A stretch of 64,000 nt of DNA from Candidatus Omnitrophota bacterium (GCA_903860135.1 CAIOPG010000008.1:64127-128126); one strand, 5' to 3'. Numbered from the stretch's first letter, positions 1,897 to 63,964 are shown. Program-made: numbers and translations. The notes: generated by a model not told the origin, from the letters alone.

Positions 1897-2784
1897 TTAT
1901 GCTTTGACCGCAGAAGCCGCTGTGCGCGGCTGGCGCGCGCCGGTCCTGGCATAATCCAGGATCTTCGCGAGCAGGCCCTTCATGTCTTTGCGCGACACGA
2001 TCATATCGAGCAGCCCGTGGGCCAGCATGAATTCCGATGTTTGAAAACCCTTGGGGAGTTTCTGCCGCACGGTTGACTCGACCACGCGCGGGCCCGCAAA
2101 ACCCAGGAGGGCTTTGGGCTCGGCGATAATAATATCACCGATGCCGGCAAACGACGCCATGATACCGCCCATGGTGGGATTGGTCAGCACGGAAATATAC
2201 ACGAGCCCGGCTTTGCCATGACGCGATAACGCCGCGCAGGTCTTGGCCATCTGCATGAGCGAAATGCACCCCTCGTACATGCGTGCCCCGCCGCCGGAAC
2301 CTGACACAATGATCATCGCCAGTTTATGCGCCGTCGCGTACTCCACCGCCCGCGTCACCTTTTCGCCAACCACCGAACCCATCGACCCCATGATGAACTG
2401 CGAATCCGTCACCGCGATAACCGCAGGGCGTCCGTCGATCTTGCCGTGGCCGGTGATCGCCGCATCGTTTAACCCCGTCAACTTTTGATCGCTGGCGAGC
2501 TTTTCTTTATATGTTTTGACCCCTTTGAACTCGAGCGGATCCATCGACAACATATCAGGATCCATCTCGACAAAGGTCCCCTCGTCGATCAACACATCCA
2601 GGCGCTGGCGCGCGGTCAGCGTCATGTGATAACCGCACTTGGGGCAAAGGCTCTGATTACTGTCCACTTCTTTGGTATACGAAGGCTGGTCGCAGTCCGG
2701 GCATTTCAGCCAGACGCCGTCAGGAATAGCTTTTTTACGCGGGACACGCACAAACGTGTTACTTTTTTTTCCAAAAAGGCTCAT
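1897..2784 (-). CDS. accD: acetyl-CoA carboxylase carboxyltransferase beta subunit
   Basis: N-terminal Zn-ribbon CPDCDQ...CPKCGYH followed by the carboxyltransferase domain. The start was moved to the internal MSLFGKK Met. Confidence 0.85.
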   Translation of the reverse strand: MSLFGKKSNTFVRVPRKKAIPDGVWLKCPDCDQPSYTKEVDSNQSLCPKCGYHMTLTARQRLDVLIDEGTFVEMDPDMLSMDPLEFKGVKTYKEKLASDQKLTGLNDAAITGHGKIDGRPAVIAVTDSQFIMGSMGSVVGEKVTRAVEYATAHKLAMIIVSGSGGGARMYEGCISLMQMAKTCAALSRHGKAGLVYISVLTNPTMGGIMASFAGIGDIIIAEPKALLGFAGPRVVESTVRQKLPKGFQTSEFMLAHGLLDMIVSRKDMKGLLAKILDYARTGARQPRTAASAVKA

Positions 2785-5611: not shown

Positions 5612-5944
5612 TCAACGCAAGCGCCGCGCGGCATAGGTGAAGGGCAAGAAATACTTCCGCCAGGAGGCATCGGTGGAACCAAACTCGTTTGAGCCCATAA
5701 AGAAATCAACAACCGCCTCGCGCACACGCGCCACTTCCTTAAGGCGCGGCAGGCCCGATACGCTGTCCAATGTCAGATCCAGAAGCTCCAGGGCCCTTTC
5801 CACGGCCCTGCGGCTGTAAGCGGGATTCTGCTTCACCTGCCAGTTGAGCGCGCGCTCCACCTCACTGCCGATATTGGCCATTTGCGCACACAGCGTCAAT
5901 TCCTTCCAACGCCCGGCAGCCAGATCCTTGTGCTGATAACTCAC
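5612..5944 (-). CDS. hypothetical helical protein
   Basis: 110 aa ORF with GC and codon usage like the host and no recognisable motif. Confidence 0.35.
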   Translation of the reverse strand: MSYQHKDLAAGRWKELTLCAQMANIGSEVERALNWQVKQNPAYSRRAVERALELLDLTLDSVSGLPRLKEVARVREAVVDFFMGSNEFGSTDASWRKYFLPFTYAARRLR

Positions 5945-38885: not shown

Positions 38886-40180
38886 TACTTAAGCCCCACT
38901 TTTTTGAAAATAAGGTCGCGGTGTTTGATGTAATACTTGATATCGAAACAGGCATTGATCTCGTCTTGCGACATATGCTTGCGCACGCGGCGGTCGCGGG
39001 AAAGGACATCCTTGAAATCCGATGTCTCCTGCCACACCTGCATGGCACAGCTCTGGATGATCTCGTAAGCCTCCGAGCGCGGCAGGCCTTTCTTCATCAA
39101 CTCAAGCAGGCAGCGCTGCGAGTAGATAAGGCCGCGTGTCTTCTGCAGGGACTCGATCATGTTCTTGGGATAAACGAGCAACCCTTCAACCAGCGGAATG
39201 AACTTGTTGAGCATATAATCCAGGGCGATGGTGCTATCGGGGATAATGACGCGTTCTGCCGACGAATGGCTGATGTCGCGCTCGTGCCAGAGATCCATAT
39301 TATCAATGCCGACCTGGGCATTGGCCTTGAGGATACGCGCCAGCCCGCAGATACGTTCGCACGTGACAGGGTTACGCTTATGCGGCATGGCAGATGACCC
39401 GATCTGCCCCTTGAAGAAAGGCTCCTCAACTTCGAGCACTTCAGTCTTTTGAAGAAGGCGGATCTCCGTGGCGAACTTGCTCAAAGACGCGCCGACAACC
39501 GCAATGACATTCAAAAAATGCGCATGATGATCGCGCTGGATGACCTGCGTGGCGATATTGGCAGGCTTTAATTTCAGCTTCTCGCAGACATACTGCTCGA
39601 CCTGCGGATCAATATTGGCATACGTCCCCACTGCTCCGGAAAGTTTACCGATGCGCATATCTTCGGCGGCTGTTTCAAGGCGGATAAGATTGCGGCTCAT
39701 CTCATCGTACCAGATGGCCAGCTTGAGCCCAAAGGTCATGGGTTCGGCGTGCACACCGTGCGTACGGGCGATACATACGGTATCTTTATACTTCTTGGCC
39801 TTAAGTTTCAGGACACCGAGCAGTTTCTTGATATCACCAATAACAATATCACTGGCCTCAACGCACTGCACCGACAATGCCGTGTCAAGCAGGTCGGAAG
39901 AGGTCATCCCGATATGCAGGTATTGCGCTTCAGGTCCGAGATTCTGGCCGACGTTCTGGATGAACGCCACAACATCGTGCTTGGTGCGCTCTTCGATGCG
40001 CTTAACCTCGTCGAGATCGAACCGAGCATTCTTCTTTATTTTTTCAAGAGCCGGTTTGGGGATCTTCCCCAGGCCGCACATCGCTTCGCAGGCAAGGACT
40101 TCAATCTGGAGCATGATCTCAAGCTTGTGCTGTTCCGACCATATCCGCCCCATCTTCGAAAGTGTATACCTGTCGATCAT
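38885..40180 (-). CDS. purB: adenylosuccinate lyase
   Basis: Lyase_1 family with GSSAMPHKRNP. Confidence 0.9.
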   Translation of the reverse strand: MIDRYTLSKMGRIWSEQHKLEIMLQIEVLACEAMCGLGKIPKPALEKIKKNARFDLDEVKRIEERTKHDVVAFIQNVGQNLGPEAQYLHIGMTSSDLLDTALSVQCVEASDIVIGDIKKLLGVLKLKAKKYKDTVCIARTHGVHAEPMTFGLKLAIWYDEMSRNLIRLETAAEDMRIGKLSGAVGTYANIDPQVEQYVCEKLKLKPANIATQVIQRDHHAHFLNVIAVVGASLSKFATEIRLLQKTEVLEVEEPFFKGQIGSSAMPHKRNPVTCERICGLARILKANAQVGIDNMDLWHERDISHSSAERVIIPDSTIALDYMLNKFIPLVEGLLVYPKNMIESLQKTRGLIYSQRCLLELMKKGLPRSEAYEIIQSCAMQVWQETSDFKDVLSRDRRVRKHMSQDEINACFDIKYYIKHRDLIFKKVGLK

Positions 40181-40288
40181 AATATGCTCCTTTTAATAGA
40201 TTAAAAATCTCATCTGATGTTCAAGGAATTCCCAATATAACAAAGAACCCCCTTGAAATCAAATAAATTTTACCCGTAAAATTATAAA

Positions 40289-40945
40289 CTATTGCGCGGT
40301 AACAGGTTGAGTGGCTGCCGGCTCACCCTGATCCTGCTTGAGGCTCGCGGGAAGATGCGCATCGAGGTATTTCATGCTCATTTCCACGGAATCCTTCATC
40401 AGAAGGGGCAGGGTCTGTACCAGTTTTCTACCTTCAGGTGATGCGTAAAAACGAATATAGGCACGCAGGTCGGCTTCAGAAAAATGTTTGTCATAGATCG
40501 GCAAAAGTTCCTGGATGATCTCATCCACTTTGACCGAACCACGAAATGCTTCCGCTTGCTCAGGCTTAAGGGAAGCGGTCATCTGATCAAAATTCGCCTG
40601 CATATTCTCCTTGACCCCGTAAATTTCGACAAACTTGCGGATCAGAGCGTCCTTCTGCAAGCCGTCAAACTCATCTGCCGGAACCACTGGTGCCAATATC
40701 TTATCGGACGCAGGTAGCACGGCCGGTGCTGCCGCCGCAACTGGTTCCTGGGAAGATTCAACCGCATCGACTTCATCATTATAATAGGTCAGCGGCACGC
40801 CATTGACATTGATCTTGATCCATTCAGAGCTTCTCTCGATAAGATTCCCTTCAACCACGGAGCCGTTCTTCAATTTGACAGTATCCGCGAGAGCCGGCAT
40901 AGCACCCAGACACAAACCCACAAGCATGACAATAAGTCCCCTCAT
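40289..40945 (-). CDS. DUF2059 domain periplasmic protein
   Basis: Signal peptide MRGLIVMLVGLCLGAMPALA and a C-terminal YIRFYASPEGRK motif. Confidence 0.5.
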   Translation of the reverse strand: MRGLIVMLVGLCLGAMPALADTVKLKNGSVVEGNLIERSSEWIKINVNGVPLTYYNDEVDAVESSQEPVAAAAPAVLPASDKILAPVVPADEFDGLQKDALIRKFVEIYGVKENMQANFDQMTASLKPEQAEAFRGSVKVDEIIQELLPIYDKHFSEADLRAYIRFYASPEGRKLVQTLPLLMKDSVEMSMKYLDAHLPASLKQDQGEPAATQPVTAQ

Positions 40946-41061
40946 AGCATCCCCCTTGTTGTTATGATCCAAAGATATACCATCGATTGTAAAAACTTTA
41001 CGCCTGCCGTCAATCGAATTCGTACTTGGACGCAAGCGGTGTTCATGATACCATAACCGTT

Positions 41062-42147
41062 ATGTTAAACAACCTGCGCCAGAAAATCGATCAAACCCTT
41101 GTCTCTTTCCTTGATACCGTCGAGAAGGAATACAACTTCCACCGCGTTAACCCTTTGCTTTACACCAGTATCCGCGAATTCTCCTTGCGCGAAGGCAAGC
41201 GCATCCGGCCACTCTTGTTCCTGCTCGCCTACAAAGGGTATGCCCCTCAAGGGAAAAAGATCACGGCGGCGCTGTACCGTACCGCCACCGCCATCGAATT
41301 CCTGCACAACTTCATGCTCATCCACGACGACATCATCGACCGCTCGGACCTGCGCCGTGGCCGGCCAACCATGCATCGCCTGCTCGAGAAAACTATCCCG
41401 GCCGCAGATCCCTACAGGCTGGGTACCGATCTGGCGATCATCGCGGGCGACATTGTCCATGCCATGGCCATCGACGCCTTCCTCGCCGTCAGCGAAGACC
41501 CCGCGCGCAAAGAACGCGCCTTAAGCTATTTCGTCCACACCTCCGCCTTCACGGCCATGGGCGAATTCGTGGACACCCTGCACGGGGTAGACCAGCTGAA
41601 ACATGTCGCCGAGGATGATGTCTTCCTCAATTATTCCCTGAAGACCGCGCGCTACACTTTCCAGTGCCCACTGGTTACAGGCGCGATCCTCGCCGGTGCT
41701 TCCCGGCACGAAACGCAGCGTCTGGCCGAGTTCGGGCTACTTATCGGGCAGGCCTTCCAGATCCAGGATGATATCATCGGGATATTTGAGACCGAACAAG
41801 CCATTGGCAAGTCCATTTTGAGCGACCTGGCCGAACAAAAAAAGACACTGCTCATGGTGCACGCCGACCGCACCCTCAGGGGCAAAGCCCATCAGCATTT
41901 CACGCAATTATTCCTCAAGCCCGCTCCAAACCTGGCGGATCTGGATGCCATACGCAAGATCCTCGTCGATGCCGGCACGCTGGTCTATGCCCTCGATGCC
42001 ATGCGCACCCACGCCACTCAAGCCAACACGATCCTCAAAAGCCTCAAGCTAACCCCGCGCTACCGCACCCTCATCCACACCGCCCTCTTCAACCTCTTCC
42101 GGCACGCCGAAACTGTTGCTAAAAAGTGGCAATCTCCAGGAAGTTAA
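41062..42147 (+). CDS. polyprenyl diphosphate synthase (trans-isoprenyl diphosphate synthase family)
   Basis: Two DDxxD motifs: LIHDDIIDR and FQIQDDIIG. Confidence 0.8.
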   Translation: MLNNLRQKIDQTLVSFLDTVEKEYNFHRVNPLLYTSIREFSLREGKRIRPLLFLLAYKGYAPQGKKITAALYRTATAIEFLHNFMLIHDDIIDRSDLRRGRPTMHRLLEKTIPAADPYRLGTDLAIIAGDIVHAMAIDAFLAVSEDPARKERALSYFVHTSAFTAMGEFVDTLHGVDQLKHVAEDDVFLNYSLKTARYTFQCPLVTGAILAGASRHETQRLAEFGLLIGQAFQIQDDIIGIFETEQAIGKSILSDLAEQKKTLLMVHADRTLRGKAHQHFTQLFLKPAPNLADLDAIRKILVDAGTLVYALDAMRTHATQANTILKSLKLTPRYRTLIHTALFNLFRHAETVAKKWQSPGS

Positions 42148-42212
42148 AAACCGGAGCTGCTGAATACGCCGATTCAACAACTCCGGTTCAAAATATTCAC
42201 TTTCGTGTGTCC

Positions 42213-42626
42213 TTATTTCGTCACCCAGCGGCCCGAGGGTTCCTGGATTTTTTCACCCACAGCGGCTTTGTCGCGCTGAACACCGGCGAAAACACCTTCA
42301 ACCGTGGCCATGGCTTTAGCACCGAGGTCATTCTGCTCGACGATCGCCTGGTAAAGCTCTTTACGATTGGCATTCTCGGCGTTAACAAGTTCTTTCACAA
42401 AAACACCGCTCCCGTCGAAGATTTCCACATAACCACGGTTATTCTCACCCACAACGCCCTGCCCTTTGATCGCTTTCAACTCGGCAAAACGGGCTTTGCG
42501 CGCCTGCAGCGCGGCCTCGACCTGCGGAGTCATGACCTTGATATCATAACCGGCCTGCGCCGCGGACATACCGCAAACACCTGCCAGAAAGACCGCCAAA
42601 AAAACAGCACAACCGAACTTTCTCAT
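42213..42626 (-). CDS. YdbL-like DUF1318 periplasmic protein
   Basis: Signal peptide; this gene order matches the ydbH-ynbE-ydbL neighbourhood. Confidence 0.55.
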   Translation of the reverse strand: MRKFGCAVFLAVFLAGVCGMSAAQAGYDIKVMTPQVEAALQARKARFAELKAIKGQGVVGENNRGYVEIFDGSGVFVKELVNAENANRKELYQAIVEQNDLGAKAMATVEGVFAGVQRDKAAVGEKIQEPSGRWVTK

Positions 42627-42636
42627 AACCCCCCCC

Positions 42637-42825
42637 TTATTTGGTTTGCCCGCCGCTGATCATATCCTCGATACCCGACGCGGTCTTTTCCAGGCCTTTG
42701 ATATCAATGGTAATATGCGCATTGATCGTGATCGGACGATTGGGATCGCCGATAGCCTTGACGGTACAACCACTCCCAACCGCCATGCTCATCATCAGGA
42801 CAAAAATCATTTTCGATCGTTGCAT
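42637..42825 (-). CDS. YnbE family lipoprotein
   Basis: 62 aa with a lipobox-like AVGSGC; lies between the YdbH-like and YdbL-like genes. Confidence 0.5.
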   Translation of the reverse strand: MQRSKMIFVLMMSMAVGSGCTVKAIGDPNRPITINAHITIDIKGLEKTASGIEDMISGGQTK

Positions 42826-42834
42826 GCCTCCTCC

Positions 42835-43857
42835 TCATTTCAAGAATTTCTGACCGTACGCCGCTAGGGAAGCGAGCGTCCCATCCGTATTGATCTCGTG
42901 CGCCAGATTCAACTCAAGATTAACCTCTCGGCTTCTCAGGCGCAGTTCCCCCGTGAATTTCCCCTTGGCACCGCCCTTCATTGTAAACGAAAAAAGCTCC
43001 ATGGCAAGCTTCCCGCCATTGCGGATAAGAAAATCCAGCCGTTTCTTCTCGCGCGACCTGGGCAAATACTGTGTCAACGCCGCCAGCAACGCCGCACTCA
43101 CCTGGCCTCCGGCGGGCATGGTCAGGTCGACATCCAGGGTATCCACCGTACCGATACCACCTGCCAGCTTGACCGCGCCTGTCATCACACCATTTAATTG
43201 ATCAGCGAGTTCACGGTTAAGCTCTGCCAGCTGTGCCACATCGCACCCTTCAACAAAGATCTCCGCCGCATACGTCAACGATGGACCCAGATGAACAACC
43301 GCCTGCCCCGTCACACGGCCACCATAAGCCTGCAGCTTGACCGCACGCCATTCAATCTCCGCGCCTTTGATGATAATAAAGGCCGACACAGCCCGCGCAC
43401 GGATATTATCCCAGACCGCCTCCTGCGCTGTAACGGAACCGCTCAGCGTATCCCCGGCGAGCGTCAACTGCAGACCCGCCTCCCTGGCATCGCCGGCATC
43501 ATAAACCCCATGGGCATGCTCTAGGCTCACCAGGATCCGCCGCTCCCTGCCCCACACACTTTGCAACCCGGTAACAATGACGCCGGGCGTTTCCAAGATC
43601 AACGGTTTACCATTGATCCCAAGCTCAATGCGGACGTCCTTCAGTTCTAACCGGCCAGGCAGGGAAAACGACTGCCGGCCGATGCGCAGTTCTTTCATAA
43701 CAACCCCGGGACGTCCTGCCAACGCACGGCTACAGGCTTCACGGGTCAACCAAGGGGTTTGCAACGCGCTCACCACCAACAGCACCACAGATAAAGAAAT
43801 GGCCGGAATCAACCAACGCATAAACAGCTCCATTGTGTATTCAAAGAAACCTATCAA
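42835..43857 (-). CDS. YdbH/AsmA-like membrane-anchored protein (short form)
   Basis: N-terminal TM segment; grouped with ynbE-ydbL by synteny. Confidence 0.45.
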   Translation of the reverse strand: MIGFFEYTMELFMRWLIPAISLSVVLLVVSALQTPWLTREACSRALAGRPGVVMKELRIGRQSFSLPGRLELKDVRIELGINGKPLILETPGVIVTGLQSVWGRERRILVSLEHAHGVYDAGDAREAGLQLTLAGDTLSGSVTAQEAVWDNIRARAVSAFIIIKGAEIEWRAVKLQAYGGRVTGQAVVHLGPSLTYAAEIFVEGCDVAQLAELNRELADQLNGVMTGAVKLAGGIGTVDTLDVDLTMPAGGQVSAALLAALTQYLPRSREKKRLDFLIRNGGKLAMELFSFTMKGGAKGKFTGELRLRSREVNLELNLAHEINTDGTLASLAAYGQKFLK

Positions 43858-44966
43858 ATAAGCCTGGCCGATATTTCATCGAGCACCAGGCGCCCGCGGT
43901 CAGCCACTTGCATACACGCCCCGTCGCGGATCAGCCATCCGTCGGCTACCAGCACATCCAGTTCTTCACGCCGGTCAACAGGCAACAAGACACCAAAACG
44001 TTCCTCGAGCAGGGCGATATTGATACCCGCGTTCATCCGTAACCCGAGAACAAGCGTTTCCATCAACCTTGCCACCGGCGTCAAATGCTCCTGCCCGATG
44101 ACGGCACGCCCGCCGGTACGGATCATCTTGAGGTACTGCGGCAGGGTGTCCGCGTTCCAGGAGCGCTGGCCGTCATGATGCGCATGCGCCCCCATCCCCA
44201 GCCCCACATAATTACCGCCCTGCCAGTAATGGCTATTATGGCGCGACTCAAATCCGGACCTGGCGAAATTACTGACCTCATACTGGAAAAGCCCCGCCGC
44301 TTTCAACCGGGCACACACCTGCTGGTACAATTCCGCTTGGCTATCCAGCGATACCTTTTCTCCGCGCACATGAAAGACACTGCGCTCCTCGACGGTAAGG
44401 GCATAAACCGCCACATGCTCACTGCCCAGGGACACCAACGCATCCATATCCTGATCCAGCTGCGCCGTCGTCTGCCCCGGGAACCCGAACATCAGATCGA
44501 CACTGATATTATCAAAACCAGCCGATCGAAGCACCTTAAATGCGTAAAAGTTTTCCGCGACCCCGTGCGTCCGCCCCAGCCATGACAAATACCGACGGTC
44601 AAACGACTGCGCGCCAAAACTCACACGGTTAAAACCGAGCGATCTTAATAGGGCTGCTTTCTCTGGCGTCACGCTTTCGGGGTTCATTTCAAACACACGC
44701 TCGGCATCCCCGCCGATGAAGTTCTCCCTGACCAACGCAGCCAGGCGTCTGATCCCGTCCGTAGACAAGAGCGAGGGCGTCCCGCCGCCCACATACAACG
44801 AAGAAACCGCCTGTTGCCTGTACGGCTGTGCCTCGAGCTCCACAGCGTCAAGATAGTCCGCTTCACGGAAAAATCTGCCCGTCACGACAGGGAACGCGCA
44901 ATACAGGCATTTCCGCGCGCAGCACGGGATATGAATATACAGCGATGTCATCATAAGCAGCCTCAT
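43854..44966 (-). CDS. hemW: radical SAM heme chaperone HemW (HemN-like)
   Basis: YIHIPCCARKCLYCAF CxxxCxxC radical SAM motif and a HemN C-domain. Confidence 0.8.
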   Translation of the reverse strand: MRLLMMTSLYIHIPCCARKCLYCAFPVVTGRFFREADYLDAVELEAQPYRQQAVSSLYVGGGTPSLLSTDGIRRLAALVRENFIGGDAERVFEMNPESVTPEKAALLRSLGFNRVSFGAQSFDRRYLSWLGRTHGVAENFYAFKVLRSAGFDNISVDLMFGFPGQTTAQLDQDMDALVSLGSEHVAVYALTVEERSVFHVRGEKVSLDSQAELYQQVCARLKAAGLFQYEVSNFARSGFESRHNSHYWQGGNYVGLGMGAHAHHDGQRSWNADTLPQYLKMIRTGGRAVIGQEHLTPVARLMETLVLGLRMNAGINIALLEERFGVLLPVDRREELDVLVADGWLIRDGACMQVADRGRLVLDEISARLI

Positions 44967-45086
44967 TTTCTCACCCACCCACAGGAAAAATTGAACCCAT
45001 GAAGGCTTCCTTATCAACACCGTCGATAAGCAATAACTCGTTATCATGTCATAATTAATAATTAAAGAAAAAATAATTAAATATTT

Positions 45087-45115
45087 TTTACATCTTAAAC
45101 TATAAATGTTAATAT
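45087..45115 (+). promoter_or_regulatory. strong sigma70-type promoter for the small basic protein gene
   Basis: TTTACA-N17-TAATAT in an AT-rich tract, about 40 nt upstream of an AAAGGAG SD. Confidence 0.6.
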
Positions 45116-45157
45116 AAACGTAAGTTTTAACATTTAATCATGAAAGGAGAAAATAAC

Positions 45158-45271
45158 ATGGCTTGCTCAACAAAATGCTGTCCCAAGGGCGTCACCAAGA
45201 AGGCTCCCGCTGCGAAAGCAGCTCCTGCCAAGAAGGCGGCTCCTGCGAAGAAAACAGCGAAGAAGAAGTAA
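45158..45271 (+). CDS. small (37 aa) Lys/Ala-rich basic protein, histone-H1-like AKKAAPAKK repeats with an N-terminal CxxxCC
   Basis: MACSTKCCPKGVTKKAPAAKAAPAKKAAPAKKTAKKK. A perfect AAAGGAG SD lies 8 nt upstream and a terminator immediately downstream. It is below the 60-aa ORF-track cutoff. Confidence 0.6.
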   Translation: MACSTKCCPKGVTKKAPAAKAAPAKKAAPAKKTAKKK

Positions 45272-45297
45272 GACCTCTTATCGTGATGTGTTAAAGA

Positions 45298-45326
45298 CCC
45301 TCCGGGATTCCGGGGGGTTTTTTATA
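45298..45326. terminator. rho-independent terminator shared by convergent genes
   Basis: CCCTCCGG-gatt-CCGGGGGG followed by TTTTTT. Confidence 0.7.
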
Positions 45327-45345
45327 GCACGGACACCCCCACTTG

Positions 45346-46590
45346 TCAGAAATTTAACATCATCTCTTTTATATCCGCAGACGTTTTAGTCTCTGATAAT
45401 AACACGGAGCGACGGGCCATGTCGGTTCGTGCTGTGTCGACGTGTGCGGCGAGGGCGGCAATAAGTTCCTTGTAGGCCAACACGTCGGAACGGTCTGCCC
45501 TTGCGACCCTGCGGGCATACGTCAGCACTTGTTGCTTGTCACGCACGATCTGCCGGAATTCACTGGACAGGGCGGGATCAGCAAGGCAATAGTTCAGGTA
45601 TTCATCCGCCTGGAGGTAAAGCCCGTCCACTTCGGCAAAAGCCCCAGCATCGGCCAATTTCAGGATCATGATCCCCTGCGGCACATCAGCCAGCAGGTCG
45701 ACCCCGGCCAGGGTGCGCGCCGTAACAGGAACGCCAGACCATGATAATTCTTCCAAGGCTGCCGTTGTCCCCTTACCGGTGGCGCGGAACTTGGCCAGTG
45801 CCTCACGCCAGCGACGCGCCTTGACCTCCCTCGCTTCATTGAATGCCTGAACGAAGGTCTTGACCGGAAACACCTCTTTATAACTATCCTCGGAAAGCAC
45901 CCGATCACCGGTGATCCCAATGACCTGGTCAATGCGTCTTTGATCAAGTCCCAGGCGACCGAGCGCCTGCGCCACCACATGGATGCGCCGCCTCCCGTCG
46001 GACAATGATACGGTGCCGTCTAAACTGGCCAGCGCGTCAAAAGGCCGAACGGATTTCTGGCACACCCGCATGGCCTCGACCAACCCCAAGCCCTGATTGG
46101 CCTTGAGGCACTCCCGCTCCGACTGCCGGCTCAATCGCTCCGCCGGGCCTTCAGCGCCGCGTTCGATCTCGGACAGCCGCGCCGACTCCATGGCAAGCCG
46201 CTCGTAAGCGGCCATGCGGTAATGTTTAAGAACATCAGCGGTCACGGGGCTTGAGTATTCAAGTAATAGCAAAGGATGCCGGAGCGAAACATAACTCTGG
46301 TAATCCTTATCCTGCCGCAGGTTCTTGATTAAATATTTATCGAAGGCCGCGTCAAGGTCGCGCAAGGCACTCGGGCGTGTCATCCCCTCGACCGCAAGCG
46401 CTTTAACCTCGGACATCTTCTCCTGATGCCCGACCTGGTCGATGCCAGGCGTGCGAAAATAATAATCTGCCTGATCCTCTTTCAGGGCTTCGCGGAGCAC
46501 CGTATCCGCCGGACGGACACGTTCAAAAATATCGGCGTGCGCCAACGGCATGGCCGGCAGCATCAGCAAAAACAGGATCAAGCCTCTCAT
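45346..46590 (-). CDS. periplasmic T4SS accessory protein, TraH/PFL_4711-like (tentative); last gene of the T4SS/T4P operon
   Basis: Signal peptide MRGLILFLLMLPAMPLAHA. It follows traU as in F/G-type mating-pair-formation (MPF) systems. No direct motif was confirmed. Confidence 0.4.
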   Translation of the reverse strand: MRGLILFLLMLPAMPLAHADIFERVRPADTVLREALKEDQADYYFRTPGIDQVGHQEKMSEVKALAVEGMTRPSALRDLDAAFDKYLIKNLRQDKDYQSYVSLRHPLLLLEYSSPVTADVLKHYRMAAYERLAMESARLSEIERGAEGPAERLSRQSERECLKANQGLGLVEAMRVCQKSVRPFDALASLDGTVSLSDGRRRIHVVAQALGRLGLDQRRIDQVIGITGDRVLSEDSYKEVFPVKTFVQAFNEAREVKARRWREALAKFRATGKGTTAALEELSWSGVPVTARTLAGVDLLADVPQGIMILKLADAGAFAEVDGLYLQADEYLNYCLADPALSSEFRQIVRDKQQVLTYARRVARADRSDVLAYKELIAALAAHVDTARTDMARRSVLLSETKTSADIKEMMLNF

Positions 46591-46874
46591 TCCGGCAGCC
46601 TCTCCAGGATACGCTGAGCCGCGGCGATCTTCTTGAGACGTTCTTTCTGCCACGCGAGGTATTTCAGCGCTGTTGTTGCATTGGGGTCATCGAGAAAAGC
46701 CTCGACGACCGCTGGCGGCGCGAAACCTCTTTCCACCCATAAAGGATCCGGGAACGAAGGCTTAGCCTGGGCATTTTCTTTAACGGCAAAATATTCGATC
46801 CGGCCGATGCCGTAAAGATCCGCCGCGACCACCGACGGGAAGGCCGCACAGCCCACGATCAAAACAAGCAACAT
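46587..46874 (-). CDS. small periplasmic protein (TrbC/TraW-like position, tentative)
   Basis: Signal peptide MLLVLIVGCAAFPSVVAA; ATGA overlap with the downstream gene. Confidence 0.35.
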   Translation of the reverse strand: MLLVLIVGCAAFPSVVAADLYGIGRIEYFAVKENAQAKPSFPDPLWVERGFAPPAVVEAFLDDPNATTALKYLAWQKERLKKIAAAQRILERLPE

Positions 46875-47722
46875 TCTTTTTTTCGCCAGTAGATCCACAC
46901 AAACCTCCCGTCGCGTGCGTTCACGCCATTGTCCCATAAGGCCGGATCTGCCCCGACAGCCATGCAGCGCTGCTTGACCGGCGACACCATCTGCAAGCGG
47001 TCAAAACGGACATCCGGCCAGAAAAGCACCGGGGCTACAACCTGATGCGGTGTCTGAGGTTTTAGCGCCGCGATATCAACCGCCCTGAAAGCCGCCACCG
47101 CAGAAGCCGTGGCCGGGCTGGCGTGCACCACAAACCCGGTGCGCGGATAAAGCGGCCCCCAGACCCCCAGACATAACCCCGGGAATAAAGCACCGTAACG
47201 CGCACAGACAGGGGCGACCTTAGCGGTCATCTGCGCCAGGGGATGCTTCATCTCGTAACGCGCGCGCCGCCATTCATCCCTGTCCTGTTCACTGATATAA
47301 CTGATCGCACTCCCCAAATCCGGCAGACCTTCACACGGGGCTTCGACCATGAGTGAAAAGGTATCTGAAAAAGGAAACCCGAAAACATGGGCCTCGTTCA
47401 GGTGAAGATTGGTCGTATCGGCTTGTCCCGCGGCCCCGCACGCAGAGGCCTCTGCCCGCGAACCGGCCATAGCGGCCACAACAGACTTATATTCCATGAT
47501 GCCCGATACCCCGGAACGTCGGGTGGTTTCAACCAGCAAGACCGGCTGCCAGTAACGGACCTTGGCTCCTACAAAGGGCGGTGAATTCCTCCGGCAAACG
47601 CCGAGCACCTGGAACCTGACACACGGCCAGTCCGCCTGGGCTGCCAAAGCAACAAGGCTTTCATCGGCTGTCACCGGAACAACAGTAAAAGTCAAAAGGA
47701 TCAGGGCAATGATGGCTTGCAT
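46859..47722 (-). CDS. traU: conjugal transfer protein TraU family
   Basis: Signal peptide and conserved Cys residues. The C-terminus VWIYWRKKECCLF matches the F TraU C-terminus ...MWRKRNCVFL. Confidence 0.7.
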   Translation of the reverse strand: MQAIIALILLTFTVVPVTADESLVALAAQADWPCVRFQVLGVCRRNSPPFVGAKVRYWQPVLLVETTRRSGVSGIMEYKSVVAAMAGSRAEASACGAAGQADTTNLHLNEAHVFGFPFSDTFSLMVEAPCEGLPDLGSAISYISEQDRDEWRRARYEMKHPLAQMTAKVAPVCARYGALFPGLCLGVWGPLYPRTGFVVHASPATASAVAAFRAVDIAALKPQTPHQVVAPVLFWPDVRFDRLQMVSPVKQRCMAVGADPALWDNGVNARDGRFVWIYWRKKECCLF

Positions 47723-47723
47723 A

Positions 47724-48611
47724 TCACGACCTTATGATCCAGTACAACGCCATCGACGGCTGAACGTTGTTGTGCGCAAGGCCGCCCCCGGCTGCTGCTG
47801 TGACGCCCGCGCGCTGGGATGTGAGTAACGGGGAAGAACTCCCATCGTACCGACTGCCCGTCCAAGGTGATTCGTTATAGCCGTGCGTGTGCGCCGGCAT
47901 TTCGGCGATGGTCAACCGATGCGCTTCTTCACCGAAGATCCCGCCCAGCGAACGCCCCCGGGTATCGGTCATGACATTGGCCGCAGAGCCGCCCATATTA
48001 TCAAGCCCCACGACCGTGCGTCCGCGCAAATCAGGCAGATTGAACGTTGTTGACCCGTTGCCTGGACCATAGGTGGTGCCGATCACAGCGAACAATCCCG
48101 TATAATCCGCGCGCGCCACAGCGCGGCCGTCACAGATCAGCCAGCCTGAGGGCAGTGTCCCCGCAGGCCACGGCACGATCGTCCCGGCCGCTGCCAGTGA
48201 TTCCGTCCCCGGCGGTGTTACCTTGAGATTGACCCGTGTTCCGTTGATAACCGGCATCGGCAATAACACGGCTGTCGCTGACGCAAGGTCCGCCGGTAAA
48301 GTCGTGGTCAAATTTAGAAGCGCCCCCGCCTTCTGAACTTCATAAAGGTTCCCAAAAGGATTCCTGGTGCTCCAGGCTGTGTCTAGGAATCCGGCCGTAC
48401 GCAAAGCATCAAGGCTGTCAGGCCATTGTTGTTTTTCGATATAATACGCGCGCGCAACCTCGGCGATCTGGGACATCTCCATCGCCGTCTTTCTGGCCGC
48501 TTCCAAGCGCACCCCGCGGACAAAATCAGGGACGACCGCGCCGGCCAGGATCATGGCCATGGCCAGGGCCAGCGACAATTCGATCAAGGTGAAACTCCGT
48601 CTACGGTGCAT
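47724..48611 (-). CDS. minor pilin with class-III prepilin N-terminus fused to a phage tail-collar (MdpB-like) domain; candidate pilus-tip adhesin
   Basis: RRRSFTLIELSLALAMAMIL prepilin leader/helix. The C-terminus carries the LICDGRAVARADYTGLFAVIGTTYG...FNLPDLRGR...AHTHGY tail-collar signature. Confidence 0.6.
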   Translation of the reverse strand: MHRRRSFTLIELSLALAMAMILAGAVVPDFVRGVRLEAARKTAMEMSQIAEVARAYYIEKQQWPDSLDALRTAGFLDTAWSTRNPFGNLYEVQKAGALLNLTTTLPADLASATAVLLPMPVINGTRVNLKVTPPGTESLAAAGTIVPWPAGTLPSGWLICDGRAVARADYTGLFAVIGTTYGPGNGSTTFNLPDLRGRTVVGLDNMGGSAANVMTDTRGRSLGGIFGEEAHRLTIAEMPAHTHGYNESPWTGSRYDGSSSPLLTSQRAGVTAAAGGGLAHNNVQPSMALYWIIRS

Positions 48612-49050
48612 GCTTATTCCTTTGTTGGTATAATAACCGCGCCGCTTGGCCATGATCCTTTCCAATCGACAGACGGATCAGGTCCCAGGAGCCCCTGGAC
48701 TGAACCACAAACCCGTATCTCCCGGCGTCTGCTTTGGCCGTTCCGGCGGGAACCTCGGTTTCGATCCACAGGCGCCGCGCGTCTGAAGCAAAGGTGTACG
48801 CACGGCCCCAGCTATTATTTTCCGGCATCCTGGGAAGCACCCCATGGATCTCCTGCCACGCGGCAGGCCATACCCCCTGAAGGCTGGCGTATTGACGGCC
48901 AGCCTCAAGAAAAGCCGCCATATCATTGACCGTGCGCCGGGCACGGGCCATGGCCACCGGTTTACCGGCAGAACAGAGAACCCCGCCGGCCACGGCCACG
49001 AGCAAGACGCACGTCAACGACAATTCCAGCAAGCTGGCCGCGCGCTTCAT
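48601..49050 (-). CDS. minor (pseudo)pilin
   Basis: MKRAASLLELSLTCVLLVAVAGG is a prepilin-like N-terminal helix. Confidence 0.5.
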   Translation of the reverse strand: MKRAASLLELSLTCVLLVAVAGGVLCSAGKPVAMARARRTVNDMAAFLEAGRQYASLQGVWPAAWQEIHGVLPRMPENNSWGRAYTFASDARRLWIETEVPAGTAKADAGRYGFVVQSRGSWDLIRLSIGKDHGQAARLLYQQRNKHAP

Positions 49051-49496
49051 CAAAACGTGGCTTTCCATACCTTGCCTGCCTGGTCGTAATTAGTCGCTTC
49101 CGCTCGCGATAGAAACGTACTGGTCAATTCAGCACCCGCCGACGCAGGGACGCTGGCGAGCGCAATGTCCACCCGCGTATTATCCGCCGCGTTCGCCGCC
49201 ACGGTGTAATCACCGCCAAAGCTATTGGCAAGGGCAGGATCAAAGTTGTTGGGCAACAGGCCGGCAGTCTTGAGCGTCCCTACGCTAACGCCGGTATAGG
49301 TGAGATTCTGCCCCGAAAGATAATTCTGCGCAGCGATGCGCAAACTGTCGACCGCCTGCGCCTCCCGCTGAAGGCGGCATTTATTCATCATCCCGCCACC
49401 GGCGGCCACAACGCTCACAAGGACACCCATGAGCCCTATGGCTATCGCCAGTTCCATCAAAGAAAATCCCCGGTTATAACGTGCGTTCCTCTTCAT
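49050..49496 (-). CDS. major type IV pilin (class III signal peptide)
   Basis: MKRNARYNRGFSLMELAIAIGLMGVLVSVVA has a G|FSLMEL cleavage/methylation motif. The start was moved; the track ORF is 64 aa too long. Confidence 0.7.
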   Translation of the reverse strand: MKRNARYNRGFSLMELAIAIGLMGVLVSVVAAGGGMMNKCRLQREAQAVDSLRIAAQNYLSGQNLTYTGVSVGTLKTAGLLPNNFDPALANSFGGDYTVAANAADNTRVDIALASVPASAGAELTSTFLSRAEATNYDQAGKVWKATF

Positions 49497-49510
49497 CTTC
49501 CCCTCCTGGT

Positions 49511-50572
49511 TTACGGTTTCAACACACCAATGTGTGTCAGATTGGCATAAATAGGTTTCAAGAATGCAAGTGCCATGAGCATGACAAAGAACGCCGCTAC
49601 GCCCAGCAAGGCCGGCTGAAGTGTTGCCGCCAGCAGGCCGACGCGCGTTTCGAAGGAACGATAATAAAATTTGAACACACGCTCGCAATATTCATCGTAA
49701 TGCCCGGTTTCCTCGCCGAGCCTGACAGTTTCAACAACCAGCCGCGGGAAATATTTTCCAACAGCCAAAGCAGCTGAAAACGTATGCCCTCCGGCAAGGT
49801 ATTGCCGGCAGTGTTTTAATTCCATCCCGGTTCTGTTGACAGCCGCGGCCGCCGCCTCCGTGAGGGCGGTGTCGAGCGGAATACCACTGCGCAACAGCAC
49901 AAAGATATCGAAAAAACACAAGGCGATCTCGAGGTCCCGGTGCGCCCGGCCAACCAAAGGAAGTTCATTCAAAAAGGCATGCCATTGATCAGGATAGCGT
50001 GAGATCAATCCCATCATGGTCAGCCCCAGGACTGCGGTCCCACCAAACAACCATCCCCCCGCGTGCACGATGAAAGCGCTGAAAGTGATAAGGGCGCGTG
50101 TCAACCAATTATCCAAGGCCTCCGGCGGTAACAGCGGCGCCAGTTGGGGCACAACGGCCTGTGCCATATAAATGAGCACCACCAAAAGAAGCCCGATGAC
50201 GCTTGCCGGATAAATAACCGCCTGAAGGCATTTATCCTTTAAACGCGCGGACAGGTCAAAATGATCCGCCAGAAGCCCCATGACCAAAGGTAGATTCCCG
50301 GCATGCTCGCCAGCCTTAACCGCATTTAAAGCCAAACGAGGGAAAAGGCCTGTTTGCCCCATGGCCTGTGCCAACGGGCGGCCTGCGGCAAGTTCAAGGA
50401 GCATCACCGCACAACCCCGCGACAACCGTGGATCAAGGACAGCTTCTTTGAGTGAACCCAGGGCATGGTTAAGGGCAATGCCCGCCACCAGCATATTGGC
50501 AAGGTCCCTGAAGAAAAACGACAGACGTGCGGCCGGGACAGCCCTTGGCGGTAACAAGAACAACGCTGTCAT
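49511..50572 (-). CDS. type II secretion/type IV pilus platform protein (GspF/PilC/PilR family)
   Basis: 353 aa polytopic membrane protein with duplicated GspF-like cytoplasmic domains; directly downstream of the ATPase. Confidence 0.7.
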   Translation of the reverse strand: MTALFLLPPRAVPAARLSFFFRDLANMLVAGIALNHALGSLKEAVLDPRLSRGCAVMLLELAAGRPLAQAMGQTGLFPRLALNAVKAGEHAGNLPLVMGLLADHFDLSARLKDKCLQAVIYPASVIGLLLVVLIYMAQAVVPQLAPLLPPEALDNWLTRALITFSAFIVHAGGWLFGGTAVLGLTMMGLISRYPDQWHAFLNELPLVGRAHRDLEIALCFFDIFVLLRSGIPLDTALTEAAAAAVNRTGMELKHCRQYLAGGHTFSAALAVGKYFPRLVVETVRLGEETGHYDEYCERVFKFYYRSFETRVGLLAATLQPALLGVAAFFVMLMALAFLKPIYANLTHIGVLKP

Positions 50573-63124: not shown

Positions 63125-63964
63125 TTACGGCGTTATCAGGCCCTGCAACAGGCTGGCGCCGACAGGCTGTATGCTCAGGATCTCGGGCACAAGGCCGTCG
63201 ATCCGTATATTCTCCAGATTCTGCTGGCTCACCGGCAAAACCACCCCGGCCCCATCACGCTTGATCTGCATGTCAAGGTTCGACTGCGCAAAGTCGATAC
63301 CACCTTTTAAATCTTGACTATTATCATGGTTAGTCGTGAATTTGTTATGTTTATCCTGCTCAATAAGTTGTTTCGCTGTGTTACCTTTCAACATTCCCTC
63401 AATATAGGGCCTGACACGAAAATATTCATTCGAGTCTTTTTCAAAAATGGCCTTAAGTGCCACACCCACACGATAATTCAGACTATCTATCTGAACTGTT
63501 GGAAAATGATCCAAGAATGGCGTCATGCTGATAACATGCAACGCCATGGCGCGTCCATTCCCACGCTTAAAATCCTCTTCCATTGCTGTATTAAAACGAG
63601 CAAATATCCCATTTAAATAATTTTCAGTTATCGCGCTCGCCTGATCGACCTTAAAAGAAATAACAACAGGATTCATTTGAAAGTCTGGATTGCCTATAAC
63701 TTCTAAACTCTTAACATCCCAATTCATGGCATCAGCAAATATTTTCGTATAGTTTCTTACGTCGCCATTATCGACAAATGGCATCGATACCGTAATAACC
63801 TGTCGATCATTTGATGTTATTTTTATCCTTTTATAGATCGTTGCATTGATATTGTTAATATTCCTTTCATTTTCTAAGCTATGCTTTAGAATATAGATCG
63901 TTGCATTGATATTGTTAATATTCCTTTCATTTTCTAAGCTATGCTTTAGAATAAAAGCATGCAA
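63125..63964 (-). CDS. protein with AT-rich N-terminal region and conserved GC-rich C-terminal domain shared with the giant protein; possibly 5'-incomplete at window edge
   Basis: The C-terminus GGIDFAQSNLDMQIKRDGAGVV...GLVPEILSIQPVGASL aligns with the C-terminus of ORF 6239..10021. GC drops sharply at ~63310. It contains an in-frame 60-bp tandem duplication. Confidence 0.5.
   Translation of the reverse strand: MHAFILKHSLENERNINNINATIYILKHSLENERNINNINATIYKRIKITSNDRQVITVSMPFVDNGDVRNYTKIFADAMNWDVKSLEVIGNPDFQMNPVVISFKVDQASAITENYLNGIFARFNTAMEEDFKRGNGRAMALHVISMTPFLDHFPTVQIDSLNYRVGVALKAIFEKDSNEYFRVRPYIEGMLKGNTAKQLIEQDKHNKFTTNHDNSQDLKGGIDFAQSNLDMQIKRDGAGVVLPVSQQNLENIRIDGLVPEILSIQPVGASLLQGLITP
63834..63953. 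repeat. perfect 60-bp tandem duplication (2 copies) inside a CDS
   Basis: TAGATCGTTGCATTGATATTGTTAATATTCCTTTCATTTTCTAAGCTATGCTTTAGAATA x2, in-frame, which duplicates the peptide ILKHSLENERNINNINATIY. Confidence 0.9.

Follow-up and report, generated by a model that had tools for sequence, protein, structure and literature searches.

The locus examined here raises two questions: whether a very short, lysine-rich reading frame is a gene, and what a protein so small and so basic could do in the cell. It lies in a 64,000-nt stretch of DNA from a Candidatus Omnitrophota bacterium (hereafter the window), in which the original prediction placed a 37-aa Lys/Ala-rich basic protein gene with its own promoter, ribosome-binding site and terminator.

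The small gene and its expression signals

Analysis of the window confirmed the predicted ORF (Table 1), which was the sole Lys-rich small ORF within the 64 kb. The encoded peptide contains 12 Lys, 11 Ala, 4 Pro and 3 Cys and neither Asp nor Glu, with a calculated pI of 10.3 and a mass of 3.7 kDa. Its description as unannotated holds only in part: the exact product is already recorded as a gene in five public contigs, and the region 40158..50271 of the window is 100% identical to the ENA metagenome contig ERZ27313599 k141_359998 (128 kb), in which the ORF is called.

Table 1. Features of the small gene and its divergent neighbour (window coordinates)
Feature	Position	Strand	Basis or remark
hemW, radical-SAM heme chaperone, divergent neighbour	43854..44951	-	TIGR00539 HemW, E = 2e-78
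AT-rich stretch upstream of the -35	45040..45086	+	also the divergent intergenic region common with hemW
-35 hexamer TTTACA	45087..45092	+	sequence and promoter scan; followed by a 17-nt spacer
Extended -10 box TGTTAATAT (TGnTAnnAT)	45107..45115	+	promoter scan, same site, TG present
-10 hexamer TAATAT	45110..45115	+	TG at 45107-45108 gives an extended -10 (TGnTAATAT)
5' UTR (putative)	45122..45157	+	putative transcription start about 7 nt past the -10, from the promoter position
Shine-Dalgarno AAAGGAG	45143..45149	+	8 nt ahead of the ATG at 45158
Coding sequence, 37 aa + TAA, MACSTKCCPKGVTKKAPAAKAAPAKKAAPAKKTAKKK	45158..45271	+	translation; conservation in nine orthologues
Intrinsic terminator	45294..45323	+	8 G-C-rich pairs with an A-U extension, loop GATT, then T6

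The TTTACA-N17-TAATAT promoter was present as described, and its -10 hexamer is moreover extended by a TG. It lies in an AT-rich island with a GC content of 15-24% over 45000..45150, compared with about 55-60% in the surroundings (composition profile). We aligned 16 upstream regions, taken from Cys-type genes such as that of the window and from a Cys-less group of small genes described below. This analysis revealed that T40, G41, T43, A44, A47 and T48 of the -10 box (TGnTAnnAT) were invariant in all 16 promoters and in both gene types. GGAG and the ATG were likewise invariant; the -35 region was nearly so (TTTACA or TTTGCA in the majority of promoters from orthologues and paralogues), and the T-run directly 5' of it was near-invariant across the Cys-type and Cys-less genes alike. 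The AT-rich stretch upstream of the -35 (45040..45086) is UP-element-like and may act in that role. Of the ten Cys-type upstream regions, nine had an extended -10, located at -51 or -70 relative to the ATG, and the 5' UTR sequence was conserved in part (AACATTTAA..ATGAAAGGAG; upstream-region alignment). The predicted AAAGGAG-N8-ATG arrangement was also found, and GGAGAAA preceded the ATG by 8-9 nt in all ten orthologues.

The strong terminator that had been claimed was present as well, beginning 23 nt past the end of the small gene. Its stem (CCCTCCGG/CCGGGGGG) occupies 45298..45317 around the GATT loop, A-U pairs extend it to 45294..45321, and the T6 run lies at 45318..45323. Folding of a 66-nt stretch that contains the terminator gave -26.4 kcal/mol (centroid -22.1; z = -3.6 compared with shuffled sequences). 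A hairpin and T-run followed the stop codon in all ten orthologues, with differing stem sequences and a preserved structure. The terminator was absent from the list produced by a simple terminator scan, while the fold itself is unambiguous. The region 45087..45323 is a self-contained monocistronic gene, which is probably expressed very strongly.

On its downstream side, the small gene converges with the final gene of a pilus-like operon on the minus strand, which encodes a 414-aa protein without a family match, TraU, a pilin with a phage tail-collar domain, T2SS-F and T2SS-E. Since the convergent stop codons at 45271 and 45346 are separated by a single hairpin, it is plausible that the small gene and the minus-strand operon share one terminator. 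Use of the hairpin by the minus strand would depend on a weak T-tract, only TCTTT. The same gene order bears on the idea that the ORF is a Lys-rich leader peptide, which would sense lysyl-tRNA and attenuate a downstream gene at the terminator. A short ORF with 12 Lys codons and an intrinsic terminator 23 nt further on would fit such a role, but in every relative, as in the window, the gene that follows is convergent, which leaves no same-strand gene downstream. Furthermore, no conserved alternative anti-terminator pairing was found, and Cys, Pro and Thr positions outside the Lys codons are conserved. Gene order thus brings the attenuator reading close to refuted, and we give it next to no weight.

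Orthologues beside hemW and the coding strand

The hemW loci of relatives were collected by exact-protein look-up, by one genome scan with a HemW alignment and by one metagenome pattern scan, and the small-gene family was traced through hemW synteny and this one sequence pattern. The pattern, built from the first orthologues, combined a Shine-Dalgarno sequence with ATG-x-Cys and [VA][TS]KKA; in metagenome contigs it returned four true loci, all adjoining hemW, and one false locus. This yielded ten Cys-type genes of 25-37 aa, namely that of the window and nine orthologues of 25-36 aa on Candidatus Omnitrophota metagenome contigs (Table 2). Cys-type genes were found only in loci where HemW was at least 55% identical to that of the window. 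The closest named homologues of the window HemW were from Candidatus Omnitrophota MAGs.

Table 2. Cys-type peptides and the identity of the adjoining HemW to that of the window
Locus	HemW identity to window	Peptide
Window	reference	MACSTKCCPKGVTKKAPAAKAAPAKKAAPAKKTAKKK
L089 (=L160)	69%	MACSTKGCTKGVTKKAPAKKAPAKKAVPAKKTAKKK
L161		MACSSKKCTKGVTKKAPAKKTAKKKK
L085	62%	MACCTSKKCTKKVTKKATKKAPAKKTAKKK
L159		MACCSTKKCTKKVTKKAPAKKTAKKK
L088	55%	MACCSSKKCTKKVTKKAPAKKVAKKK
L002	60%	MSCCSKKCCTKKASKKAPAKKTAKKK
L163		MPCCSKKCTKKASKKAPAKKVAKKKKK
L086	57%	MKCCATKCTKKATKKAPAKKAPAKKTAKKK
L004	57%	MSCCTSKKCTKPASKKAPAKKAKKK

In each of the ten loci, the small gene lay 5' of hemW and was transcribed divergently from it, and hemW is its only conserved syntenic partner. 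We see no functional reason for this partnership beyond the common divergent AT-rich control region. Two Omnitrophota loci (L005 and L007) had no such ORF near hemW, and the gene is therefore not universal in the phylum. The hemW loci among the matches listed in the genome scan were mostly non-Omnitrophota; L005-L009 were informative, and the other 75, taken as negative controls, had no comparable K/A-rich ORF adjoining hemW.

The small gene had also been described as abutting the operon for a hybrid machine. This is correct for the window; in several relatives, however, L161 among them, tatA/tatC separate the pilus/TraU operon from the small genes, and the conserved neighbour is hemW. The contact seen in the window is therefore secondary. 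Functional membership in the pilus/TraU operon was considered and rejected on the same ground, tatAC being in between in relatives. These data also weigh on the suggestion that the product is an exported cationic peptide, cell-penetrating or antimicrobial, which would act against prey or a host and be tied to the type IV pilus/TraU-like machine. Omnitrophota have been proposed to be predators or parasites (PMC10066038), PAKKA-type peptides from the Ku tail act as cell-penetrating peptides (PMC10739243), and the window gene does adjoin the machine operon. Set against this, the peptide has no signal peptide or hydrophobic segment, and the gene lies outside the operon and converges with it, with tatA/tatC intervening in relatives and hemW as the invariant neighbour; we regard export as very unlikely. 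A lipoprotein or secreted peptide was rejected as well, there being no hydrophobic region or lipobox.

To compare the small gene with hemW, we used L089, the closest relative with DNA available for a pN/pS estimate. The two small genes differ by 16 synonymous and 4 non-synonymous codon differences. The Nei-Gojobori method gave pN 0.06 and pS 0.68 for the small gene, compared with pN 0.20 and pS 0.59 for hemW; the small gene is thus under tighter constraint than hemW. Synonymous sites are saturated and the peptide is almost unchanged, so that the amino-acid sequence is under strong purifying selection. Across the family, the variable sites at codon positions 1, 2 and 3 numbered 9, 7 and 24 of 25, respectively (columns filled by at least eight sequences), and the stop codon came right after the Lys run in all ten orthologues. 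The pattern expected of a small RNA, in which the expression signals are conserved around an ORF that is not, did not occur: ORF, promoter, Shine-Dalgarno sequence, start, stop and terminator were all conserved. A single promoter or terminator match would not suffice to exclude chance, but the recurrence of the whole arrangement in nine other loci does so. We are confident from these comparisons that the locus is a real translated gene, and the codon-position and pN/pS data support the original prediction of a small protein gene over a small RNA.

Codon periodicity alone cannot choose the strand, because the antisense -2 frame has the same wobble positions as the sense frame. This antisense frame was open in all ten orthologues and reads as a hydrophobic helix (FFFAVFFAGAAFLAG...), and the NCBI annotation of one relative calls a 54-aa antisense ORF. 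The K-rich frame might then be unselected, and the locus would specify either a regulatory small RNA or, on the antisense strand, a hydrophobic peptide resembling a type I toxin (FFFAVFFAGAAFLAGAAF...), the plus-strand transcript being the antisense RNA of the toxin in the latter version. The 3-nt periodicity suits both frames. The antisense frame is nevertheless open because reversed AAG and GCN codons give no stops. The antisense ORF is anywhere between 34 and 106 aa long, and TTG, GTG or ATG serves as its first start at differing places, sometimes just past the terminator hairpin; no conserved start codon or Shine-Dalgarno sequence, as would be looked for in a type I toxin, was found for it across the ten loci. 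The signals of the sense frame, in contrast, are positionally conserved in 9-10 of the ten loci, and an antisense membrane peptide could not be accommodated in the 14-aa members of the Cys-less group. As for a small RNA, a search of Rfam 15 returned only three chance-level matches, at 14-18 bits compared with gathering scores of 36-127, and a non-coding RNA would not vary by codon position as described above. The strand call rests on the promoter, Shine-Dalgarno sequence, start, stop and terminator, and on these grounds an unselected K-rich frame is highly improbable.

The cysteine head and the cysteine-less paralogue

Alignment of the Cys-type peptides gave the consensus M-x-C-[CS]-x2-K-x-C-[TP]-K-x-[VA]-[TS]-KKAP-(AKKAP)n-AKKxAKKK, in which the repeat number varies among orthologues. 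Each peptide has two to four Cys residues. Two of these are invariant and spaced as C-x4-C (C3 and C8 in the window), while C7 is variable; the CxxxCC motif first proposed for metal binding therefore did not hold as such, and only its C3 and C8 are conserved. Neither the CxxC spacing of heavy-metal-associated MxCxxC motifs nor the dense Cys cluster of metallothioneins was found, the conserved pair being C-x4-C. A heme-attachment motif was also rejected, with no CxxCH or CxxCK present.

Most relatives carry a second small gene, which encodes a Cys-less peptide of 14-28 aa and is located between the Cys-type gene and hemW (examples are MAVKKAKKKAPAKKVAKKKK, MAVKKAAKKAVKKAVKKAPAKKTAKKKK, MAKKPAKKPVKKVAKKKK and MATKKKKKKTAKKK). 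Its promoter, Shine-Dalgarno and terminator layout is the same as that of the Cys-type gene, and its range is wider than that of the Cys-type gene, taking in more remote Omnitrophota at a HemW identity of 43-49%. In the window, L089 and L161, the Cys-type gene stands alone and is longer. The upstream region of the window gene was 67-74% identical to paralogue promoters compared with 55-67% to the Cys-type promoters of two-gene relatives, and the upstream regions of L089 and L161 likewise resembled the paralogue promoter more than the Cys-type promoter. The identities hint at a deletion in these three loci that placed the Cys ORF behind the hemW-proximal promoter.

Kind of protein and possible function

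Database searches returned no family for the peptide. When five family members were searched against Pfam-A at E up to 10, each gave zero families, with no match to Hc1 (PF07432), Hc2 (PF07382) or linker-histone models. NCBIfam, also at E up to 10, contained no matching ribosomal-protein model (bS22, bL37, bL36 and others); its sub-threshold compositional matches were to the Rv3852 family (15.7 bits compared with a cutoff of 100) and to the linker regions of the valine-tRNA ligase and methylmalonyl-CoA decarboxylase gamma subunit models. No significant match to the peptide was identified in the PDB. A phmmer search with the 37-mer against 1.84 billion representatives gave no match at E up to 0.001, and a very large protein search with a 43-aa in-frame extension gave 285 candidates, none at E up to 1. 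The peptide was absent from an exact-sequence cluster look-up, although the gene-position index contains it. The empty large searches are due in part to the poor representation and down-weighting of short, biased peptides. We found no description of such peptides in Omnitrophota in the literature searched; histones, nucleoid proteins and lysine-rich small proteins go unmentioned both in the main paper on the phylum and in a 2026 preprint on complete genomes.

By composition, the peptide belongs with H1-like and PAKKA-type tails: it contains tandem (A/P/T)-A/P-K-K units (KKAPAAKAAPAKKAAPAKKTAKKK), with no acidic residues and predicted disorder. A-P-A-K-K occurs twice in the window peptide, KKAPAKK is present in every orthologue, and the repeat tail of the window peptide has no bulky hydrophobic residues. 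AlphaFold2 run on the single sequence returned a pLDDT of 59 and no secondary structure, and the peptide is accordingly predicted to be disordered. No folded domain is attached to the tail as in Hlp, Ku and AlgP, the whole protein being 37 aa long between a conserved ATG and a conserved stop. The resemblance to histone H1, AlgP and Hc1 noted in the original prediction therefore stands as one of composition, without a match to any of their family models. In viral contigs, a scan with PAKKxAKKK-stop was non-specific, many unrelated phage proteins sharing this tail, and free-standing K/A-rich ORFs of 19-33 aa were also found there. The PAKKxAKKK tail thus represents a generic module that has evolved repeatedly, and its target cannot be named from sequence alone.

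In mycobacteria, Hlp (HupB) and Ku carry PAKKA tails, which interact with DNA and favour end apposition (PMC3553676); these tails have the same repeat unit as the peptide described here and are disordered, strongly basic and variable in copy number. The mycobacterial repeats, however, are appended to folded DNA-binding domains, whereas here the tract makes up nearly the whole of a 25-37-aa protein, together with a Cys head. The likeness is one of composition; low-complexity tracts evolve repeatedly (PMC3553676 argues likewise). Chlamydial Hc2 contains Lys-rich pentamers in variable number (PMC2848022), and the KPAA tail of Pseudomonas AlgP interacts with DNA and associates with polyphosphate granules, for which its authors speculate on chromosome tethering (PMC9239181). 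Hc1, Hc2 and AlgP are similarly Lys/Ala/Pro-rich, the repeat number varies between strains or species (Hc2), and their roles are nucleoid condensation or polyanion tethering (AlgP: PMC9239181). In contrast to the peptide described here, Hc2 has 165-237 aa and the C-terminal domain of AlgP alone has 154 aa. Hc1, Hc2 and AlgP also have no conserved N-terminal C-x4-C head, and the Pfam models that include them do not match the peptide. The Omnitrophota are usually grouped with the PVC bacteria, which include the Chlamydiae. Bacterial H1-like Lys/Ala-rich basic proteins are the known kind; the form described here is new in being reduced to the tail alone, 25-37 aa long and headed by conserved cysteines, with a Cys-less twin in most relatives.

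The function is read from the design of the peptide, because there is no family, PDB or large-database match and no predicted structure. The near-consensus promoter and Shine-Dalgarno sequence, the pure A-P-A-K-K polycation and the free variation in repeat number point to an H1-tail-like protein. On balance, we interpret the gene as one for an abundant, disordered polyanion-binding micro-protein in a clade of Candidatus Omnitrophota, with DNA as the likeliest target. Polyanion or nucleic-acid binding, taken as the function in itself, we judge by analogy to be somewhat probable; DNA as the main target is put forward tentatively and at less than an even chance.

Other polyanions and other basic proteins were weighed against this interpretation. 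Binding to polyphosphate or another polyanion that is not a nucleic acid, as a granule organiser or a polyamine-like counter-ion, would agree with a pure polycation that has no specificity-conferring fold; polyphosphate granules are where the H1-like KPAA tail of AlgP localises, and their spacing requires this tail (PMC9239181). The locus, however, has no link to polyphosphate metabolism, its neighbours being hemW and the pilus-like operon, and we consider this role improbable. Binding to polyphosphate and binding to DNA are indistinguishable from sequence. Somewhat less improbable, but still unlikely, is a lineage-specific micro-protein of the ribosome or of RNA, which would fill an rRNA pocket or stabilise RNA and would not bind DNA. 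Ribosomal proteins that are small and basic are known, bS22 for example (bioRxiv 10.1101/2023.03.31.535098), and a tiny, very basic, monocistronic product with a consensus Shine-Dalgarno sequence and a strong promoter would suit a stoichiometric part of an abundant machine. Mycobacterial bS22, bL37 and eL41 are comparable in being 24-33 aa long and highly basic, are frequently monocistronic and tend to be overlooked in annotation; unlike the peptide described here, they are Arg/Lys-rich, have a fixed length and make specific rRNA contacts. No NCBIfam ribosomal-protein model matched even at E up to 10, the length is free among close relatives (Cys-type 25-37 aa, paralogue 14-28 aa), which would be unusual for a fixed rRNA site, and the window peptide is a low-complexity sequence of K, A and P with no Arg or aromatic anchor residues.

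A DNA-binding tail would act as a free-standing equivalent of the histone-H1 C-terminal tail or the mycobacterial PAKKA tail, binding a cellular polyanion, most likely chromosomal DNA, electrostatically. Most Omnitrophota are cells of about 0.2 μm (PMC10066038). Cells this small would face an acute need to neutralise and compact their DNA; the tail may offset DNA charge and aid compaction. A precedent for a very small basic DNA-binding peptide in a compact cell form is provided by ScvA and Hq1 of Coxiella burnetii, small basic DNA-binding proteins that are enriched in the small-cell variant with its condensed nucleoid (PMC4766238).

The invariant C-x4-C head is missing from the paralogue, which implies that it adds a property of its own. 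Vertebrate P1 protamines are also short polycations with a Cys-containing N-terminus, and mammalian P1 begins MARYRCC...; inter-chain disulfide or zinc bridges lock protamine-condensed DNA, and these could serve as a model for the head. Protamines are nonetheless Arg-rich, eukaryotic, about 50 aa long and unrelated in sequence to the peptide. ScvA, at about 30 aa, is Arg/Gln-rich rather than Lys/Ala/Pro-rich and is not known to have a Cys motif. Two thiols per peptide would be too few alone for a tetrahedral metal site, which a dimer could complete; alternatively, the Cys pair could form inter-chain disulfides between two or more peptides. Pairing of either kind would conjecturally turn a monovalent tail into a multivalent, protamine-like cross-linker. 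By this analogy, Cys-mediated pairing is conceivable, and we rate it as rather doubtful. A broader and still more doubtful proposal is that this clade packages or organises its DNA with two-part micro-protamines and not only with classical nucleoid proteins. The two parts would be a Cys-less poly(Lys/Ala) peptide of 14-28 aa and a Cys-headed peptide of 25-37 aa, both expressed from near-consensus extended -10 promoters; the C-x4-C head would be a redox- or metal-switchable cross-linker, and nucleoid compaction in these cells of about 0.2 μm would follow the oxidation state or metal supply.

If the micro-protamine reading is true, these peptides would rank with the smallest chromatin proteins known in bacteria. 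Peptides this small and basic systematically escape notice: both of the very large protein collections gave no match, and in at least one relative the public annotation takes the meaningless antisense ORF for the gene. The conserved promoter, Shine-Dalgarno and terminator cassette is predicted to be a ready-made strong expression unit for an uncultured phylum. If the peptide and its Cys-less paralogue are abundant, they would offer a minimal natural model of H1/PAKKA-type tails that work without a folded domain, in which the conserved Cys pair provides a simple handle for asking whether multivalency is under redox or metal control. They would then also bear directly on how DNA, RNA or polyphosphate is neutralised and compacted near the lower limit of cell size.

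Promoter of the small gene and the second micro-gene of relatives

Analysis of the loci of relatives revealed a second micro-gene that lacks cysteine and is placed between the Cys-type gene (the orthologue of the small gene in the window) and hemW. Its product is 14-28 aa in length (for example MAVKKAKKKAPAKKVAKKKK and MATKKKKKKTAKKK), and every copy has its own promoter (TTTACA-17-TGTTATTAT), a consensus SD and a terminator. No Cys-less micro-gene was present in the window. When upstream regions were aligned, the promoter and 5' UTR of the small gene (45068..45157) displayed 67-74% similarity to those of the Cys-less paralogue, compared with a lower level of 55-67% to the Cys-type promoter of relatives that carry both genes. 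This comparison suggests that, in the lineage of the window and the orthologous loci L089 and L161, the Cys-type ORF became joined through a deletion to the promoter nearer hemW.

In three orthologues (L085, L086 and L159), the extended -10 box was located at -70 from the ATG, not -51. The added sequence of roughly 20 nt is a 5'-UTR hairpin (e.g. ggctctttcatgggaaagagcc), possibly an mRNA-stabilising stem.

Coordinates of features in other contigs, local to each locus
Feature	Locus	Position	Strand
Cys-less micro-gene	L002	505..567	-
Cys-less micro-gene	L004	1023..1079	-
Cys-less micro-gene	L085	2713..2799	-
Cys-less micro-gene	L086	2737..2799	-
Cys-less micro-gene	L088	2551..2616	-
Cys-less micro-gene	L159	5733..5795	+
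Cys-less micro-gene	L163	821..883	+
Cys-less micro-gene	L006	3538..3600	-
Cys-less micro-gene	L008	3755..3799	-
Cys-less micro-gene	L009	3843..3887	-
Shifted extended -10 box and 5'-UTR hairpin	L085	about 2400..2440	-
Shifted extended -10 box and 5'-UTR hairpin	L086	about 2370..2410	-
Shifted extended -10 box and 5'-UTR hairpin	L159	about 5890..5925	+
Notable IMG/VR tail or K/A-rich ORF	L107	6120..6179	
Notable IMG/VR tail or K/A-rich ORF	L122	2644..2745	
Notable IMG/VR tail or K/A-rich ORF	L097	84..371	
Notable IMG/VR tail or K/A-rich ORF	L137	1615..1920	

hemW start and gene calls on record

The longest hemW ORF in the window (43854..45047, minus strand) encodes 397 aa from an ATG at 45047 and extends into the AT island. 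Together, the 365-366 aa length of hemW in all relatives and the public gene call, which agrees with an ATG at 44951, indicate that the latter is the true start. This places the hemW start about 135 bp from the -35 box of the small gene. In L089 (GCA_005795785.1), the recorded gene call (2042..2206, plus strand) is an antisense hydrophobic ORF of 54 aa, and the K-rich gene itself is passed over. A 73-aa ORF annotated on the DNA-less contigs of P0002, with tatC on one side and hemW on the other, is probably the same mis-call.

Similar sequences elsewhere

PAKKxAKKK-stop forms the terminal tail of dozens of unrelated phage-contig proteins (IMG/VR loci L092-L158). These loci also hold free-standing K/A-rich ORFs of 19-33 aa, and K/A/P-repeat proteins of 95-101 aa with an N-terminal Cys (MFFGSKKCAAAKK... 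and MFGLKKKCACAK...). Separately, an AT-rich stretch at the window end holds a perfect 60-bp tandem duplication (63833..63952, two copies of atagatcgttgcattgatattgttaatattcctttcattttctaagctatgctttagaat), and both copies include TGTTAATAT, the extended -10 sequence of the small gene.

The adjacent operon and tatA/tatC

The adjacent operon (46859..48665, minus strand) encodes a TraU-family protein (PF06834), T2SS-F/E components and a pilin-like protein that bears a phage tail-collar domain (N_methyl and PF07484), and this arrangement is kept in the loci of relatives. At the junction between the operon and the small gene, tatA and tatC were missing in the window (45272..45345), L085, L088 and L089. 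Since these two genes intervene between the last operon gene and the small gene/hemW in several relatives (e.g. L161, 1361..2137), the direct adjacency of small gene and operon in the window is, as judged from locus comparison, a derived arrangement.
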